Sequence record: NC_028894.1
Reading direction: 5' to 3' (one strand)
DNA: 64,000 nt
Source of the DNA: Escherichia phage vB_EcoM_VR20
The position numbers and the translations under genes were made by a program. Below, piece after piece: positions 7,416-42,532 of the stretch. Every line of letters starts with the position of its first letter. The stretch's first letter is position 1. Below the pieces are notes generated by a model that saw only the letters and a list, made by a program, of their open reading frames with translations, ran no database searches and had not been told where the DNA came from.

Positions 7416-9229
7416 TGATGTTTAACCCTATGCATGATTTCTTTATTTTTGCCGAGATTAAATCCACGTTCGTTCGGATTCCCTAAATAGCCGCATGTTC
7501 TTCTTATTGTGTTCATCTTTTTAGGGTCAGTTTCTCCACAAATAGAACAAACAAATCCGTTTTCAGTAGGAGTCATTTCATGGGTACTTCCACACGTAAA
7601 ACATTTATCTACTGGCATATTAACACCAAAATAATCTAAATGTTGTGCAGCATAATCCCATACAGCCTCAAGACCTTTTAAGTTATTTTTCATATCAGGA
7701 AGTTCAACATAAGAAATGTGACCGCCTGTCGCAATGAAATGATATGGGGCTTCACGAGAAATCTTTTCAAACGGGGTAATATTTTCTTCTACTGAAACAT
7801 GGAAACTGTTAGTGTACCAGCCTTTATCGGTAACATCTTTTACACTTCCGTATTTTTCGGTATCAAGTTTACAGAAGCGATAGCACAGGTTTTCAGCAGG
7901 AGTAGAATACAAACTAAAAGCAAATCCGGTTCTTTCAGTCCACTGCTTAAGACGAGCATTCATTTTAGTTAAAATTTCTTGTCCAATATCACGACCGACA
8001 AGAATATTCAATTCGTGAATACCAATGTATCCCAAAGACACTGAACTTCTACCGTTTTTAAATAACTCAATTATATCGTCATCAGGTTTAAGACGAACCC
8101 CGAATGCACCTTCTTGGTAAAGAATAGGAGCAACAGTCGCTTTAACTCCTTTTAAGGAACTAATTCTACACATCAAAGCTTCAAAACATAAATCCATTCG
8201 CTCATTGAACAATTCAGTAAATTTCTGTTCATTGAACTGTGTTCCAATATAAGAATCTAACGCAATACGAGGAAGATTTAATGTTACAACACCAAGATTA
8301 TTACGTCCATCAAGAATTTCATTACCAGTCGAATCTTTCCATACGCCCAAGAAACTACGACAACCCATTGGAGAAACAGGAATAGATGAACCAGTGATAG
8401 CTTTGTTATTCTTAGCTGAAATGATATCAGGATACATTCTTTTGCTTGCACACTCTAAAGCAAGCTGCTTAATATCATAGTTTGGGTCGTCTTTATAAAG
8501 ATTAACACCTTCTTCAACGAACATAACAAGTTTAGGGAAAATAGGAGTTATCCCATCACGACCAAGACCTTTAATACGATTTTTCAGAATTGCTTTCTGA
8601 ATCATTCGTTCAGTCCAGTCAGTTCCAGTACCAAATGTAATTGTCACAAAAGGAGTCTGACCATTTGAACTAAAGAGAGTATTTACTTCATATTCATAAG
8701 CTTGGAATGCATCATATACGTCTTTTTCTGTTTTAGATTGAGCATAATTCAACGCATCAGTGATTTGCCATTTTTCCGCGTCCTCAATATGTTTCGCATA
8801 GGTACGTTTAACATAAGGAGAAAGTACTTTATCTACATTCGCAAAAGTCGTTCCGCCATATTGATGGGAAGCAACCTGTGCAGTAATTTGTGCCATAATT
8901 GCAGTAGCAACACTGATTGATTTAGGAGTTTCAATCTGTGCATTACCGAGCTTAAACCCGTTCTCAAGCATTCCTTTTAAATCTACTAAACAGCAATTAG
9001 TAAATGGAAGAGCAGGGGAATAATCAATATCATGGAAATGAATAATTCCGCTTTCATGTGCTTTCATAATAAAAGACGCGACCATATTTTTGGCAATGTG
9101 TTTAGATACAATACCAGCCATAAGGTCACGTTGGGTTGGAAAAACACGAGAATCTTTATTAGCATTCTCGTTTAAAAGGTCTTTATTAGTTTTATGAATC
9201 AATCCTTCAATTTCGTTTTCAATTGTCAT
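7412..9229 (-). CDS. nrdD: Anaerobic ribonucleoside-triphosphate reductase NrdD (uninterrupted)
   Basis: 605 aa; C-terminal glycyl-radical/zinc ribbon region CFTCGS...CSICGE; no intron or inserted ORF. Confidence 0.9.
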   Translation of the reverse strand: MTIENEIEGLIHKTNKDLLNENANKDSRVFPTQRDLMAGIVSKHIAKNMVASFIMKAHESGIIHFHDIDYSPALPFTNCCLVDLKGMLENGFKLGNAQIETPKSISVATAIMAQITAQVASHQYGGTTFANVDKVLSPYVKRTYAKHIEDAEKWQITDALNYAQSKTEKDVYDAFQAYEYEVNTLFSSNGQTPFVTITFGTGTDWTERMIQKAILKNRIKGLGRDGITPIFPKLVMFVEEGVNLYKDDPNYDIKQLALECASKRMYPDIISAKNNKAITGSSIPVSPMGCRSFLGVWKDSTGNEILDGRNNLGVVTLNLPRIALDSYIGTQFNEQKFTELFNERMDLCFEALMCRISSLKGVKATVAPILYQEGAFGVRLKPDDDIIELFKNGRSSVSLGYIGIHELNILVGRDIGQEILTKMNARLKQWTERTGFAFSLYSTPAENLCYRFCKLDTEKYGSVKDVTDKGWYTNSFHVSVEENITPFEKISREAPYHFIATGGHISYVELPDMKNNLKGLEAVWDYAAQHLDYFGVNMPVDKCFTCGSTHEMTPTENGFVCSICGETDPKKMNTIRRTCGYLGNPNERGFNLGKNKEIMHRVKHQ

Positions 9230-9699
9230 TTTAAACTCTTTCTAAGCTGCTTCTTAAATGAAGCCATTAATTGTGTTTTTGTGTCAGATTCATTATAAGT
9301 CATACCGTTCAAAAGCATTTCCCGAATCATTTCTTCTTTCCCCAGACGGCCAAACTCTTTGGCTTTGTCTGTTACAAAATTGGGGTGAATATTGTTTTCG
9401 GTATAATCAGATTTCAGATAGACAAGCAAACTCTCCAACCATTCCAGGTAGTCAACATTGCGACCTTTCAGACCCGAACGGCTGAACTTATGCTTCATTT
9501 GCCCTTCTGTTCCATTGCACAGATTGCATAGTAACCCGCGAACCTTACCAGCTTTTGGCCCGTTCAATTCGTGGTCATGGTCAAGATGGTTGGCCTGAAC
9601 ATCAGAGTCCAAATCACGGTGGCAAATTGGACACTTACCAGCTTGTGCATCATAAAGTTTTTGTTTTTCTTCTTTGTATAATTTGCCAGTCAACAACAT
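9226..9699 (-). CDS. 49: Endonuclease VII (Holliday junction resolvase) gp49
   Basis: 157 aa; MLLTGKLYKEEKQK...HLDHDHELNGPKAGKVRGLLCNLCN matches T4 EndoVII. Confidence 0.85.
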   Translation of the reverse strand: MLLTGKLYKEEKQKLYDAQAGKCPICHRDLDSDVQANHLDHDHELNGPKAGKVRGLLCNLCNGTEGQMKHKFSRSGLKGRNVDYLEWLESLLVYLKSDYTENNIHPNFVTDKAKEFGRLGKEEMIREMLLNGMTYNESDTKTQLMASFKKQLRKSLK

Positions 9700-34516: not shown

Positions 34517-34822
34517 TTAAATTTTGTTTTCCTGCACACCATAATAAAGTTCATCAGACACAATATCCAGGATGCGGCGAACATATTCATCATGGTATTG
34601 GCAGTCAAAATCAAATGCAACAGTAGTTTCCGCTTCACGAGTGAATTTAACTTGCACATTCAGGTGATTAACAACGTTAGTTAATTTATCAGTAAAGAAC
34701 TCTTTTGCTACCGCCTGTTGGACTTGCACTTTGAACTTGGTGTTACGAATCATATTTTCAGCAGATGTGAAATTACCAGTTTTATCAAAGTCAACAAGCG
34801 CCAGGTTGATGATGAATTTCAT
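34517..34822 (-). CDS. Hypothetical protein
   Basis: 101 aa ORF preceded by class II leader cassette. Confidence 0.45.
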   Translation of the reverse strand: MKFIINLALVDFDKTGNFTSAENMIRNTKFKVQVQQAVAKEFFTDKLTNVVNHLNVQVKFTREAETTVAFDFDCQYHDEYVRRILDIVSDELYYGVQENKI

Positions 34823-34824
34823 TT

Positions 34825-34900
34825 TATTCTCCAGTGTTTTATTTGGTAACTCAGTATGGAATCATTATGCCTTAAAGCAGGGGGCTTGTATACCCCCTTT
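34825..34900 (-). promoter_or_regulatory. Class II promoter/leader cassette with upstream GC hairpin
   Basis: GGGGGtatacaagCCCCC hairpin, then GCATAATGATTCCATACTGAGTTACCAAATAAAACACTGGAGAATAAA-ATG. Confidence 0.5.
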
Positions 34901-34904
34901 TTAA

Positions 34905-35348
34905 TTAAATTTCAAATTCTTTGCGGAAGTTGGAAGCATAAGACTGAACTGATGCTTTGTTGAATCCAAACTCACGCACAATCATATCAATAACAGCTCT
35001 GCGAGCAGCACCGTTAGACATATTAACAGTTCTGAACATATCATAGCATAAATCTTTGTTGCTCATACCGGAGCGTTTAGGTGCCTTACGTTCAGCTTTT
35101 GGTTCAGCTTTAGGAGTAGGTTTAACTTCTGGTTTAACCTGTCCATCATTCAGACCTTTAAAAATTTTACCTGCCAGAGTTGCCAGTTTAGCAGCTTCGC
35201 CACGAGTGATACCAAATACTGCCGGGTTAAATGAAATACCTTCAGCTGTCAGACGTTTGAAGAACATACGTGCTGCGGATTGTGCTTCAGCTTCAGAAGA
35301 GTTGTTTAATGCCAGTTTAACATACTTAACCAGTTTTGAAGTTTTCAT
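34905..35348 (-). CDS. Hypothetical protein, paralog family with conserved C-terminal domain
   Basis: 147 aa; C-terminus ...NGAARRAVIDMIVREFGFNKASVQSYASNFRK shared with 35801..36226; class II leader upstream. Confidence 0.5.
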   Translation of the reverse strand: MKTSKLVKYVKLALNNSSEAEAQSAARMFFKRLTAEGISFNPAVFGITRGEAAKLATLAGKIFKGLNDGQVKPEVKPTPKAEPKAERKAPKRSGMSNKDLCYDMFRTVNMSNGAARRAVIDMIVREFGFNKASVQSYASNFRKEFEI

Positions 35349-35349
35349 T

Positions 35350-35420
35350 TTATTATCCCGTTTGTTTATTTGGTAACTCAGTATGGAATCATTATGCCTT
35401 AGTTAAATTCCAAAGTACAT
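35350..35420 (-). promoter_or_regulatory. Class II promoter/leader cassette
   Basis: GCATAATGATTCCATACTGAGTTACCAAATAAACAAACGGGATAATAAA-ATG. Confidence 0.5.
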
Positions 35421-35421
35421 A

Positions 35422-35718
35422 TTAATTTTCAGAAGTTGGGAAATAAACTTCAAAGTCATACATGTTTACTACTGCAGTCGCGATTGCTTGGTACTGCATA
35501 CCCAAGAAAGTTTTCTTGTTCTTACGCCACAAGTTAACCATTTCTGTTTTGATGCATGCCAGGGAGTAGTTGGATGCAGGATACTGTTTGATGATTGCAA
35601 CAACTTCTTCAGAAGCAGTTTCGCACAATTCATTCAGTTGAGCTTCAATTTTAGCAGAAATGATTGCTTTGTTTTCTTCTTGAGCTTGGGTAGCGTGCCA
35701 TGCAGGTGCGTTGAACAT
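35422..35718 (-). CDS. Hypothetical protein
   Basis: 98 aa ORF, class II leader upstream. Confidence 0.45.
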   Translation of the reverse strand: MFNAPAWHATQAQEENKAIISAKIEAQLNELCETASEEVVAIIKQYPASNYSLACIKTEMVNLWRKNKKTFLGMQYQAIATAVVNMYDFEVYFPTSEN

Positions 35719-35719
35719 T

Positions 35720-35790
35720 TTATTCTCCAGTGTTTTATTTGTTAACTCAGTATGGGATAATTATACACTATCCCACCTGGAAGTAAAACA
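35720..35790 (-). promoter_or_regulatory. Hybrid class I/II promoter/leader cassette
   Basis: GTGTATAATTATCCCATACTGAGTTAACAAATAAAACACTGGAGAATAAA-ATG. Confidence 0.5.
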
Positions 35791-35800
35791 CTTTTCTCAA

Positions 35801-36226
35801 TTATTTTTGAGCTTTGCGGAAGTTGGATGCATATGACTGAACAACAGTCTTTTTGATATCATGGGTGGTAACCAGAACATCAATCAGAGCGCGACGAGCT
35901 GCATTATCATTCATATCAATTTCTGCAAATGCCTGGAAGCAAATGTCACGAGCATTACCAGATTTGGACTGGATTTTTTCTTCTTTAACTTCTTCAATTG
36001 GGAATTCAATCATTTCAGCTTGGATTAATTCAATGATAGATTCTTTTGACTGTTTGGTGTTTACCTTCAGTTCAGAATTAAGGGACTTGGCGATGGCAAC
36101 AATCTGGGTTGAAGTCAGATGAATAAGTGCATCTTCACGAATGCAGATTTCACATACTTCGTCAGCAACCATTTTGTTGGTGATGCGGGTAACAGAAAAT
36201 GCAGAGGTCAGGGTCAGAAAGTTCAT
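35801..36226 (-). CDS. Hypothetical protein, paralog of 34905..35348
   Basis: 141 aa from internal Met MNFLTL; C-terminus ...DNAARRALIDVLVTTHDIKKTVVQSYASNFRK. Confidence 0.5.
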   Translation of the reverse strand: MNFLTLTSAFSVTRITNKMVADEVCEICIREDALIHLTSTQIVAIAKSLNSELKVNTKQSKESIIELIQAEMIEFPIEEVKEEKIQSKSGNARDICFQAFAEIDMNDNAARRALIDVLVTTHDIKKTVVQSYASNFRKAQK

Positions 36227-36227
36227 T

Positions 36228-36320
36228 TTATTTCTCCAAAGTTTTGTTTGATTCAGTGTGTAACTCAGTATGGAATCATTATGCGCCGGGTCAATTCGGA
36301 TGTACACTACTTTTTGAAGA
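36228..36320 (-). promoter_or_regulatory. Class II promoter/leader cassette
   Basis: GTGTACA...GCATAATGATTCCATACTGAGTTACACACTGAATCAAACAAAACTTTGGAGAAATAAA-ATG. Confidence 0.5.
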
Positions 36321-36344
36321 AAATTTCAAATTTATTCGGGGTAT

Positions 36345-36365
36345 AAAAAAGCCCGCAATGCGGGC
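36345..36365 (-). terminator. Rho-independent terminator
   Basis: GCCCGCaatGCGGGC hairpin followed on minus strand by TTTTTT, 3 nt after stop of 36368..36922. Confidence 0.6.
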
Positions 36366-36367
36366 TG

Positions 36368-36922
36368 TTAGTTCTTATAAAAGCGGAACGGATTTATATG
36401 AAAGGCGAGCATAGCCTTAGGGATGGGTCGGGACAGAAGGCTCTTGAGCTTCCAGCCACAATAAACACGCAGATAAAAGGTGATTCCACCGACCTTAAGA
36501 TAAGGAACAGAAGCAAAAACACCCCAGGCGTTGTCCGTCCACATCCAGAGCCATCCATGATGAGCTTTATCCGGGGAACCAGATTCGACATCAGGATTAC
36601 CTTTATAATGGAATTCTGAATTGCAATCACGACCGAGCTTGTGGTAAGCAAAATTGTATGCTTTGTTTCGCCAGAGCCAGGCTACTCGTTGGAAGTAAAC
36701 ACCTAACGGCCATTTTCTGATTTTTTCCCAGCGTTTAACATGACCACGGTCACCATCAATTGGATTATCGTATGTCATCATCCAGTCAAATCCGAACGGA
36801 AGCTTACCAGTCTTTTTGTTATGGAACGGCACTACAAATGGTGCAAGGATAACAGCCAGAATCATTGAAATGAAATCCAGTGGCACTAACAGAATCCAGC
36901 TTAGATATTTTAAAAGTTTCAT
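36368..36922 (-). CDS. Membrane-anchored protein, apparently late-expressed
   Basis: 184 aa; N-terminal TM LSWILLVPLDFISMILAVILAPFVV then Trp-rich soluble domain; TATAAATA ~27 nt upstream. Confidence 0.5.
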   Translation of the reverse strand: MKLLKYLSWILLVPLDFISMILAVILAPFVVPFHNKKTGKLPFGFDWMMTYDNPIDGDRGHVKRWEKIRKWPLGVYFQRVAWLWRNKAYNFAYHKLGRDCNSEFHYKGNPDVESGSPDKAHHGWLWMWTDNAWGVFASVPYLKVGGITFYLRVYCGWKLKSLLSRPIPKAMLAFHINPFRFYKN

Positions 36923-36948
36923 AAATTTCCTTAGTTATGGGTACGTTA

Positions 36949-36956
36949 TATTTATA
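36949..36956 (-). promoter_or_regulatory. T4-type late promoter TATAAATA
   Basis: Exact TATAAATA on minus strand upstream of 36368..36922. Confidence 0.5.
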
Positions 36957-36984
36957 AAAAAGCCCCAACCTTTCGGAAGGGGCT
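36954..36984 (-). terminator. Terminator-like hairpin
   Basis: AGCCCC..GGGGCT imperfect hairpin followed on minus strand by TTTTTAT; downstream of 37033..37416. Confidence 0.4.
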
Positions 36985-37032
36985 AAGCCTTGCGGCAACC
37001 TTGTCGGGGTTCCACCTGCTAGGCAAGTGTTC

Positions 37033-37416
37033 TTATCCGCGTGCGAATGCCATTGCAGCGCGTTCGTTGGCACGGTCAGTGATGTTCAAGAATTTATCAC
37101 GAGCGATTTCGATTGGAGCACCAACCCAGTCAGCAGCACCATTACCTGGGGACTGTTTAGGACGAACCATATAAGTTGAAACTTTGGAACCAGCTAGTTT
37201 AGCACCAGGTGCAGCGGCATTCTTAACGTCTTTAGCTTTGATACCAAAACCAGTTACGATGCCCCAAGAAACACCATTAACTGGTTTCTTGAACATAACA
37301 CGGTCGCCAATTGAAACACCCGCTTTTTCTGGAGCTACTAAAGAAAATTTACCGGCTTCAGTCAGCACGGATTCGGTGATGGTATTGCGATTTAAAAATT
37401 CTGCATATGTAAGCAT
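37033..37416 (-). CDS. Hypothetical protein with CTS-like N-terminus
   Basis: 127 aa; MLTYAEFLNRNTITE resembles capsid targeting sequences. Confidence 0.45.
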   Translation of the reverse strand: MLTYAEFLNRNTITESVLTEAGKFSLVAPEKAGVSIGDRVMFKKPVNGVSWGIVTGFGIKAKDVKNAAAPGAKLAGSKVSTYMVRPKQSPGNGAADWVGAPIEIARDKFLNITDRANERAAMAFARG

Positions 37417-37653
37417 TTTGTTTTTCCATTATTAGGGTTGTTGTTAATATTTATATTCCATAGTACCGGATGCACCATCCGCTCGGATTTCTCATACTAC
37501 CGGGCGCACCGCCCGCTCTGGAAAAACTCCATAAAAAGGTGCGCCGTTTCTGCTGTGATATAAGGGGACATCAACAAATCGTAAAGATTTATTAATGTCA
37601 GTCCTTAAACAGGGAACATCAGTCCGACGACTTACCGGTAGCGACCCGGTTTC
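37417..37653 (-). other. GC-rich structured intergenic segment (candidate small stable RNA)
   Basis: Hairpins CGGGCGgtgCGCCCG, CGGATGgtgCATCCG, ACCGGgtcgctaCCGGT within 240 bp lacking an ORF, adjacent to the tRNA genes. Confidence 0.3.
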
Positions 37654-37893
37654 TCATTCAATTGTAATAGCTAATTTGACTTTAACAACCTTATAATTGG
37701 AATCAAGGTCATTGAATTCCATAAAATTTGTTGCTAATCTGCGAGTCGGGAAACTTAGATATTTATTATGAGCCGGAGGAGCGGTTAATGCAAACCATGG
37801 GACTTGTTTATCATTTGCATCGAACTCGTCAAAACTATAAACCAGCTCGTTGTTGGTTATATCCATAACCGCATAGGATTCGTTAATAACCAT
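37654..37893 (-). CDS. Hypothetical protein
   Basis: 79 aa ORF downstream of tRNA-Arg. Confidence 0.4.
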   Translation of the reverse strand: MVINESYAVMDITNNELVYSFDEFDANDKQVPWFALTAPPAHNKYLSFPTRRLATNFMEFNDLDSNYKVVKVKLAITIE

Positions 37894-37910: not shown

Positions 37911-37987
37911 TGGTCGGGGTGGTGGGATTCTAACCCACAACCTACGGTTTAGAAGACCGTTGCTCTATACAATTGAGCTACACCCCG
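37911..37987 (-). tRNA. tRNA-Arg (anticodon UCU), CCA encoded
   Basis: Manual cloverleaf: acceptor CGGGGTG/CACCCCG, D-stem GCTC/GAGC, anticodon stem ACGGT/ACCGT, loop CTTCTAA, T-arm GTGGG-TTAGAAT-CCCAC. Confidence 0.8.
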
Positions 37988-37989
37988 AG

Positions 37990-38062
37990 TGGCCCCATCC
38001 GGACTTGAACCGGAAACCTGCCAGTTATGAGCCGGATGCTCTAACCAATTGAGCTACAGGGC
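37990..38062 (-). tRNA. tRNA with CAU anticodon (Met or Ile)
   Basis: Manual cloverleaf: acceptor GGCCCTG/TGGGGCC, D-arm GCTC-AATTGGTTA-GAGC, loop CTCATAA, T-arm TCCGG-TTCAAGT-CCGGA; one mismatch in anticodon stem. Confidence 0.7.
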
Positions 38063-38068
38063 CTAAAA

Positions 38069-40776: not shown

Positions 40777-41109
40777 TTATTTATACAGTTTAGCTAGTTC
40801 TTTACGTCCGCGAGCAGACATAATGAATTGTTCATCACCAATTTTGAAATAAGCCATACCGCCGTCAACAGCGATGCCAATTTCTTTAGTACCTTCTTTG
40901 CCTTTCCACTTACCACCAGATTTCAGGACAGCTTCAACTGCAGCTTTGGAATATTTGGACGTTTGAAAACGTTCATTACCAATCTGAAAGAAAACACCAT
41001 CTGCATTTTTGGATAAACCAAATTTCAGAGAGCCTTCACTATCATCAATTGATTTGGTCTCATTGATGGCGGATTCGGCTAAAAACTCGTTGTAAGTTTT
41101 GATGTTCAT
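40777..41109 (-). CDS. Internal-protein-like ORF with CTS-like N-terminus (ipI position)
   Basis: 110 aa; MNIKTYNEFLAESAINE; directly upstream of 57B. Confidence 0.5.
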   Translation of the reverse strand: MNIKTYNEFLAESAINETKSIDDSEGSLKFGLSKNADGVFFQIGNERFQTSKYSKAAVEAVLKSGGKWKGKEGTKEIGIAVDGGMAYFKIGDEQFIMSARGRKELAKLYK

Positions 41110-41855: not shown

Positions 41856-42532
41856 TATAGTACCTTATTAATTTTATCAAAAAGTTCATCGAGTGTGCCA
41901 TCGTTTTTAATAACAATGTCACTAGCTAGTGGTGGAAGTCCAGCTTCCGTAATGTGTGTATCAGTAGAATGATTTGCTTCATCGCGTTCTACAAAGATTA
42001 TTGTAGCACCCATCGCCCGAAGCGAATCAAGTTCGTTCTTTTGGCGAACATCCGGGACAACGTAATATTTATATCCAGAATAGAGGTTGTCAAGATAGTC
42101 GCATGCAAAAGTTTTAATCCAAAACATGCTGTCGAACTCTGTACAAACGATGTCAGTTCCAAGGGTCTGCATGAAACGTCTAACTGTCCAGGGCTCAACA
42201 TTATTTAGTGTGTGAAATTCAATAATTTTACGAACCATATCTGGATTCGGAAGGTCAAGATTGTATTGTTGTTTCAACCATTCAAGAGCATCAACCAGAA
42301 GAATATAAGCTTCGGTGTTGTTCATTATCAAGGTTTTTTCACGGTCATAACCTTGTCCATCAAAATTTTCCAGGGTCAAATTGTGTGGTAGGTCTTGACG
42401 AATCCACGCTTTATAAAGCGCTTCTTTAATCGGACCCGCAAGCTGCCACTTTGTTCCGTTTTGACTAATAACATAATCAGCAGTCGTATCTTTACCACTG
42501 CGTTTTTTACCCACAATCGCAATTAATTTCAT
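41855..42532 (-). CDS. 1: Deoxynucleoside monophosphate kinase gp1
   Basis: 225 aa; P-loop IAIVGKKRSGKDTTADYV. Confidence 0.8.

Follow-up and report, generated by a model that had tools for sequence, protein, structure and literature searches.

A probable mobile late-promoter cassette encoding a DUF7338 putative membrane protein in the e-tRNA region of Escherichia phage vB_EcoM_VR20

Accessory open reading frames (ORFs) in the hyperplastic regions of T4-type phage genomes are generally considered to be carried by early-promoter cassettes and to function early in infection (PMC2839356; PMC1524935). Arbiol et al. (2010; PMC2839356) and Comeau et al. (2014; PMC4122927) reported that cassettes consisting of a stem-loop and an early promoter, termed PeSLs, mediate insertions and deletions (indels) of this kind; late promoters are never mentioned in either paper. 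According to Nolan et al. (2006; PMC1524935), only orthologues of T4 late genes are preceded by late promoters, and novel ORFs group with the early genes. The locus described here lies at 36345-36984 in a stretch of 64,000 nucleotides (nt) from Escherichia phage vB_EcoM_VR20 (NC_028894.1), referred to below as the window, and comprises a 184-residue ORF of family DUF7338 with a T4-type late promoter in front of it and a predicted terminator on either side. It is probably a self-contained, mobile late-promoter accessory cassette encoding a DUF7338 membrane protein, which may have a role at the cell envelope.

The ORF occupies 36368-36922, as the initial annotation had placed it; it lies on the minus strand and matches Pfam PF24027 and PHROG 2143. 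A Shine-Dalgarno sequence, AAGGAAA, can be read directly at 36926-36932 (minus strand), its GG lying 6 nt before the ATG. The annotated late promoter was also recovered: TATAAATA, an exact match to the T4-type motif, is found at 36949-36956 (minus strand), 26 nt upstream of the ATG, and no -35/-10 pair is present between 36923 and 36961. The late motif is defined at positions -13 to -6, and A/T variation at position -13 is documented in T4-like phages (PMC1524935). Eight copies of TATAAATA occur in the window against 5.3 expected, so that the count alone is not above chance. Six of the eight are intergenic, on the coding strand and 18-31 nt before an ATG; by our estimate about 0.1 such placements would be expected by chance, and the placement is thus beyond chance. 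By motif and placement, the ORF would belong to a T4-type late transcription unit. The two remaining copies, at 40778-40785 and 42066-42073 (minus strand), fall inside ORFs, and the former is only 9 nt before the next ATG, probably too close to be a promoter.

Two predicted hairpins bracket the ORF, each GC-rich and followed by a U-tract (T6 in the DNA), as expected of intrinsic (rho-independent) terminators. The upstream stem-loop, GCCCCTTCCGAAAGGTTGGGGC, at 36962-36983 (minus strand; -16 kcal/mol), precedes the T-run at 36956-36961 and occurs once in the window against 0 expected. The cassette's own terminator spans 36345-36366 (minus strand), with the hairpin AGCCCGCATTGCGGGCT at 36350-36366 and a second T6 run (-12.6 kcal/mol, z = -3.1). 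At the level of prediction, then, the earlier claims of terminators on both sides, and of insulation by them, hold.

The upstream hairpin has a separate history. Window 37031..36957, stem-loop included, is 92% identical to the T4 sequence just 3' of rnaC, and on this match the hairpin is identified as the predicted, conserved ancestral intrinsic terminator of the tRNA/stable-RNA operon. A conserved non-coding leader before it (36985-37031, minus strand) lies within this match to T4 and is also present in phage VR5. In T4, the corresponding terminator is followed by unrelated sequence and the early promoter for e.8; at this homologous site, the only part of the T4 genome checked, there is neither TATAAATA nor such an ORF.

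Comparison with phage VR7 defines the ends of the insert. VR7 is 100% identical to window 37031..36953 over 79 nt and then continues straight on to 36354..35701 at 97% identity, the junction reading ...GGTTGGGGCTTTTTTATAccccgaataaat... with one copy of the 13-nt sequence GGGCTTTTTTATA. The window holds exactly two copies of GGGCTTTTTTATA in 64 kb, a left copy at 36953-36965 and a right copy at 36342-36354 (both minus strand), which form the 3' ends of the two terminators and bound the insertion as direct repeats. Because VR7 matches both flanks contiguously and the copy starts are 611 nt apart, the ORF can be described, from this alignment, as part of a 611-nt insertion directly behind the T-run of the operon terminator. 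The block contains the remainder of the late promoter, a 5' untranslated region (UTR) with the Shine-Dalgarno sequence, the ORF and its terminator, and has a GC content of 43%, against 39-40% for the window and the neighbouring early ORFs. The promoter itself straddles the insertion junction and shares its first T with the end of the terminator T-run. TATAAATA is completed at the left junction, where the terminator end supplies TTTTTTATA and the insert supplies AATA. The empty site in VR7 reads ...CTTTTTTATAccccg and therefore has no late promoter.

VR7ORF148c (8863-9417; 'similar to BF23 ORF172c') was considered as a homologue and rejected, its translation being unrelated. It has the same length of 184 residues and the same neighbourhood, and is easily mistaken for the DUF7338 gene, for which VR7 is an actual empty site. 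No DUF7338 homologue was found in bases 20-70 kb of T5.

The same unit recurs in other phages. Mosigvirus KMB38 matches the window at 73% identity over exactly 36984..36368, a segment made up of stem-loop, promoter, UTR and ORF, and the unit sits at a different locus in that phage, next to rI and tk. A 29-nt stem-loop stretch, 100% identical to the window, is repeated there right after the stop codon, such that both flanks of the ORF carry it. In Dhakavirus VR5, tRNA-Arg, an rnaD-like region and the same leader come before the unit, in which TATAAATA is exact and the stem is a variant with both sides of one pair changed (GGCCC..GGGCC). The composite of stem-loop and TATAAATA was further found in five IMG/VR contigs; in two Dhakavirus-like contigs from IMG/VR it occurs twice, about 620 nt apart, flanking the ORF on both sides. 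An upstream terminator is present in most T4-type groups, and the late-type motif upstream of the homologues is CATAAATA in Karamvirus, AATAAATA in Gelderlandvirus and an S13-like phage, and TATAAATC in a 262-kb contig.

Late expression, as originally annotated, is therefore supported at sequence level by a well-placed promoter and by the recurrence of the motif, identical or matching at 7/8 positions, in five further T4-type genera. The description as an accessory gene also stands, given natural empty sites in VR7 and T4 and a locus that varies between genera. As in PeSLs, repeated flanking copies appear to mark indel junctions between relatives. Taken together, these alignments indicate that the cassette has moved between loci and genera, and in our reading the terminator of the tRNA operon would have served as one recombination arm.

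The encoded protein is a full-length member of its family. Residues 1-183 align with positions 1-179 of the 180 in the PF24027 model at 210.9 bits (E = 1.5e-62; gathering score 27 bits), and the PHROG 2143 match (E = 2.6e-79) belongs to the category 'unknown function'. PF24027 is found in 38 of 38 close homologue clusters, and a profile search returned 940 clusters at 50% identity; among the 150 matches listed, all have a single matched stretch and most are about 160-220 residues long. DUF7338 is also the sole domain of ten longer members. A 288-residue family member from a metagenome, P0092, has a C-terminal extension containing GCGPSW...CDKHDNCY, followed by a second hydrophobic segment; the extension is reminiscent of the Ca-loop/HD motif of phospholipase A2, an unverified lead with no Pfam match at E <= 10. 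Apart from DUF7338, the VR20 protein has no Pfam match at E <= 1, and no NCBIfam or PADLOC match at E <= 1 links it to a catalogued defence or exclusion protein. A profile search of PDB sequences returned only de novo coiled-coil noise. Literature searches found no papers on DUF7338, PF24027 or phrog_2143, and nothing relevant on Felixounavirus transcriptomes.

Values of dN/dS between 0.036 and 0.061 against UPEC01, VR5 and KMB38 point to strong purifying selection. Fourteen columns are invariant in 32 sequences (P28, T50, D52, W82, R85, N86, Y89, G97, R152, G156, W157, K158, M171 and P178), and N53, H61, R64, W65 and K160 are nearly so, a pattern that looks like that of an active or binding site. 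The protein contains 11 Trp among its 184 residues, and its C-terminal part has an isoelectric point of 9.9.

A hydrophobic stretch covers approximately residues 7-33, with a 19-residue Kyte-Doolittle mean of up to 2.43 (peak at 7-31); the usual transmembrane threshold for such a mean is about 1.6. The family-wide mean for this helix is 2.17 (175 members), which supports the membrane association proposed initially. The net charge of the N-terminal flank exceeds that of the C-terminal flank in 146 of the 175 members, which weakly suggests an N-in/C-out orientation.

An AlphaFold 2 model (predicted local distance difference test 96; predicted template modelling score, pTM, 0.85) comprises a 32-residue N-terminal helix (2-33), short helices, a helix pair at 74-95 and long antiparallel strands at 123-183. 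The model has no significant match to any solved fold, with Foldseek PDB matches at E > 1 and TM-scores of about 0.1-0.2, and from the model the fold is apparently new to the PDB. Mean-field direct coupling analysis of 176 members recovers the hairpin register (134-154, 136-152) and couples the hydrophobic helix to helix 74-95 in an antiparallel series (16-92, 19-88, 23-88, 27-84, 31-80 and 33-76). Further contacts pair residues 22, 26 and 30 with M48, and also involve strand residue 144. This co-variation of residues 16-33 with 74-95 and M48 argues that the hydrophobic helix is part of the fold, beside the invariant WLWRN..Y helix. The initial picture of a transmembrane anchor joined to a Trp-rich soluble domain is, on this co-variation, too simple: the very hydrophobic helix and the abundance of Trp are real, whereas the helix is predicted not to be a free anchor, and a 'soluble domain' is doubtful where the helix is coupled into the fold.

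The genomic company of DUF7338 genes is varied. Same-strand tRNA genes lie within 600 nt at 39 of 80 IMG/VR loci, in lineages down to 33% protein identity that include Felixounavirus, Karamvirus, a 121-kb contig and jumbo-size contigs of about 240 kb; in Felix O1-like phages the gene is inside the tRNA array, on the same strand and just before the terminase/structural block. In a Chitinivorax prophage it follows a tail fibre and a tail-fibre chaperone at the prophage end, in Fluviicoccus it stands between two tail-fibre genes, and in one temperate or uncultured phage it follows a Gly_rich_2 protein. A Ruegeria prophage has it at the end of a tail module, behind an endolysin, a spanin-like gene and a moron. 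Other contexts are replication genes or isolated, oppositely oriented units. Bacterial genomes, sampled at one per species, yielded only six loci, which are partly phage contamination.

Expression of a homologue is recorded in phage YerA41. The gene is g185, identified because the succession of product lengths in Table S2 agrees with that of the GenBank record, and its product was detected by liquid chromatography-tandem mass spectrometry (LC-MS/MS) in purified particles and annotated 'structural protein'. This detection shows that the DUF7338 protein is made in YerA41.

It is proposed, from T4 biology, that early and middle transcripts of the tRNA operon would stop at hairpin 36962-36983. Initiation by the gp55/gp33/gp45-RNA polymerase a few bases after the late motif is described in PMC7892883 and PMC1524935. 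After the onset of replication, this polymerase would start a few bases downstream of TATAAATA, producing a monocistronic mRNA, about 0.6 kb long, with its end at 36350-36366. The upstream stop and the late start would thus give the ORF its own message, and the protein would be made only late. The unit itself may move between T4-type genomes through recombination at its stem-loop and T-run ends.

In the most likely arrangement, the very hydrophobic N-terminal helix crosses the inner membrane, into which it would insert late in infection; the amphipathic helix bearing W82, R85, N86 and Y89 and a basic, aromatic-rich beta-sheet would pack against it. A late role directed at the envelope is plausible, the tail-fibre company in Chitinivorax and Fluviicoccus and the Gly_rich_2 neighbour being counted in its favour. 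More tentatively, the protein may be a membrane-embedded enzyme, or a lipid- or glycolipid-binding protein, that alters the envelope late; for example, a receptor could be masked or removed, which would spare progeny from loss on debris or keep out superinfecting phage. An extended proposal, which we regard as unlikely in its full form, is a new class of membrane-embedded enzyme with a fold unseen in the PDB and an active site formed by D52, H61, R64, R85, N86, Y89, R152 and K158 at the membrane interface, beside its own transmembrane helix. Such an enzyme would remodel envelope lipid or glycolipid late, so as to control re-adsorption, exclusion or lysis, and would have spread on a previously undescribed late-promoter counterpart of PeSLs that landed at a tRNA-operon terminator.

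Several observations weigh against a late cassette for an envelope protein. The late timing of the ORF rests on a motif, and the closest relatives, UPEC01 and P8, have TATAAATC instead of TATAAATA. The late motif is absent in Slopekvirus, Pseudotevenvirus and two Dhakavirus-like contigs, though the terminator is present, and YerA41 g185 is assigned to the expression class 'middle'. The orientation assigned to the helix derives from a charge-bias heuristic, with similar mean K+R counts on the two flanks (1.14 versus 1.40), and a helix packed into the fold could in principle be the buried core of a non-membrane protein. Homology and fold searches indicate no enzyme class. Furthermore, the commonest linkage, to tRNA arrays, is not accounted for by an envelope role, and tail-fibre adjacency is seen in only three of about ten independent contexts, the rest being replication genes or isolated units.

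A function in lysis timing, as an accessory holin, antiholin or lysis-inhibition factor in the inner membrane that modulates firing of the T holin, is considered rather improbable. It would fit the late promoter, which T4 t and rI share, and the product resembles holin T in outline, with one N-terminal hydrophobic helix and a larger C-terminal domain. Position also offers some parallels: the unit is immediately after rI in Mosigvirus, the Ruegeria gene follows an endolysin and a spanin-like gene, and T4 t comes right after tail fibre 37 and chaperone 38, the position that DUF7338 takes in the Chitinivorax prophage. However, there is no sequence match to holin T, and no solved chain was significant in the fold searches; DUF7338 has almost no N-terminal cytoplasmic segment, and its only family assignments are DUF7338 itself in Pfam and a PHROG of unknown function category. 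The 14 invariant residues, many of them polar, and the strong conservation across hosts are atypical for holins, and the helix is probably more hydrophobic than a signal-anchor-release domain of the RI kind would be. In the window, the gene is kilobases from the endolysin region, among an ORFan, stable RNA/tRNA genes and early-promoter ORFs, and the Ruegeria prophage, the only context with an endolysin near the gene, already has a holin-like ORF before that endolysin. T-even phages with DUF7338 generally also carry t. Several GenBank records do say 'holin'; for this label and for 'structural protein' (MW233709, PP693301, KP143762, OK539913 and MW570730 carry one or the other) no supporting evidence was found, and both were likely propagated from topology or from a low-specificity virion proteome.

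A virion-associated or assembly protein, packaged or helping tail-fibre or head assembly at the membrane, is very unlikely. The YerA41 detection in purified particles would speak for it, together with the late promoter, the tail-fibre genes adjacent in three contexts and, in Felix O1-like phages, a location immediately before the terminase/structural block. With its polymerases, helicases, nucleases and many other replication enzymes, the list of 63 proteins from YerA41 has low specificity; the detection is thus not proof of a structural role, and a membrane protein would co-purify with debris. Such hydrophobicity of a helix is also unusual for a virion component, and the gene is dispensable for T-even virion construction, because it is absent from VR7 and from the homologous T4 site. 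Equally slim is the chance that the product is a compact globular protein outside the membrane, with the hydrophobic helix as the buried core of a hot-dog or helix-grip fold and a role tied to tRNA arrays. The co-variation of residues 16-33 with helix 74-95, M48 and strand residue 144 would suit this arrangement, as would the pTM, which fits a single compact body, and about half of the Foldseek PDB matches have the hot-dog fold (FabZ, thioesterases). These matches are the non-significant ones given above, and a hydropathy of 2.2-2.4 over 19 residues, far above the transmembrane threshold, is sustained across 175 members. As tRNA arrays are known hyperplastic insertion hot spots, the linkage to tRNA genes need not be functional. 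A mobile late-promoter cassette for a membrane protein, which may act at the envelope, remains the preferred account.

The window is that of a Gaprivervirus/Dhakavirus-like T-even phage, and the cassette falls in its e-tRNA hyperplastic region, where nearly every gene is on the minus strand. A 1.7-kb query around the locus matched 698 phage records, with TH41, UPEC01 and Yersinia phage P8 (Gaprivervirus-type T-even phages) at the top at about 94-95% identity; in annotated relatives, 57B, ip genes and tRNAs lie on one side of the region and e.3, e.4, e and denV on the other. Upstream of the cassette, tRNA-Met and tRNA-Arg were located at 37911-38063 (minus strand) by ARAGORN and Rfam. Window 37658..37538 (minus strand) is a full-length homologue of T4 rnaD (species 2 RNA), 88.5% identical, for which Rfam gave no detection. 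A 79-residue ORF (37654-37893, minus strand) is wedged between tRNA-Arg and the rnaD homologue, its stop codon overlapping the rnaD start; in T4, unlike the window, tRNA-Arg and rnaD are directly adjacent.

In T4, rnaC, the partner of rnaD, is located between rnaD and the leader; the window has no rnaC. Its place, between the rnaD homologue and the operon terminator, is taken by an ORFan of 127 residues (37033-37416, minus strand; GC 45%) with its own TATAAATA at 37448-37455, 31 nt from the ATG, so that the whole unit spans 37033-37455 (minus strand). This protein has just one cluster, 98% identical, among 5.8 billion proteins, and no match in NCBIfam, PADLOC or PHROGs.

Downstream of the cassette, the sequence returns to early-type units. 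A PeSL-like sigma-70 early-promoter repeat at 36234-36306 (minus strand) would drive the adjacent ORF at 35801-36229. It is one of four D1/D2 copies (repeats of 49 and 47 nt) at 34820, 35347, 35716 and 36234 in the region 34820-36306 (minus strand). Four consecutive small ORFs (34517-36229) each have one such repeat of about 75 nt holding sigma-70-like hexamers, and by sequence they are best described as PeSL-like early units. Two of them, 34905-35348 and 35801-36229 (minus strand), share the C-terminal motif ...NGAARRA.ID..V......K..VQSYASNFRK... and a 31-nt DNA repeat, D7; in one GenBank record, the gene under this match is labelled 'rho-N domain-containing', a label that is unconfirmed. The description of the cassette's neighbours as early-promoted is thus true downstream, where each of the four ORFs bears a sigma-70-type repeat, and fails upstream, where the ORFan has TATAAATA. 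Nor is the surrounding region purely early, as had been annotated, but a mixed e-tRNA-ip region; the structural description initially given is otherwise largely right.

This cassette offers natural filled and empty sites, and the unit is found at different loci in three genera. DUF7338 is a good target in the search for new phage-host envelope activities, because the family is large and strongly conserved and has a confident model without a solved relative. In GenBank, the spreading annotation of this family as 'holin' or 'structural protein' is unsupported.

Among described systems, T4 e, ipI, ipII and ipIII share with the cassette the neighbourhood, the strand, single-gene late promoters and terminators between genes. 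These four genes are expressed late in T4, and they are conserved T4 orthologues, whereas the late promoter of the cassette serves a novel, non-T4 gene. In general character, DUF7338 resembles the receptor-masking superinfection-exclusion proteins T5 Llp and Cor of phi80, N15 and T1, as well as T4 Imm and Sp, which are all small, dispensable and mobile accessory envelope proteins; the Llp/Cor type often adjoins tail-fibre or receptor-binding-protein genes. Llp and Cor are lipoproteins, and Imm and Sp are early proteins. By contrast, DUF7338 has no lipobox, no homology to any of them was detected, and it is late-promoted here, with enzyme-like invariant polar residues.

The closest parallel is the PeSL; genuinely PeSL-like repeats with early promoters lie directly downstream of the cassette. 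The PeSL and the cassette both combine a stem-loop terminator of the GGGG/CCCC type with a promoter and are situated between ORFans of hyperplastic regions; in both, repeated copies can flank an ORF, here in relatives (KMB38 and the two IMG/VR contigs), and indel polymorphism has its junction inside the element, which for VR7 is the shared 13-nt end. They differ in that the window has one copy of the stem-loop, the second boundary being another hairpin that shares only the 13-nt end, and in that the cassette uses the gp55-type late motif TATAAATA where PeSLs have a sigma-70 early promoter. Because the PeSL papers describe early-promoter cassettes and no late promoters, the unit is read as a late-promoter variant of a PeSL-type cassette, with the same cut-and-paste logic applied to a composite of terminator and late promoter. 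Mobile units of the PeSL type were thus already known, and what appears from these comparisons to be new is a late-promoter version carrying an uncharacterised family.

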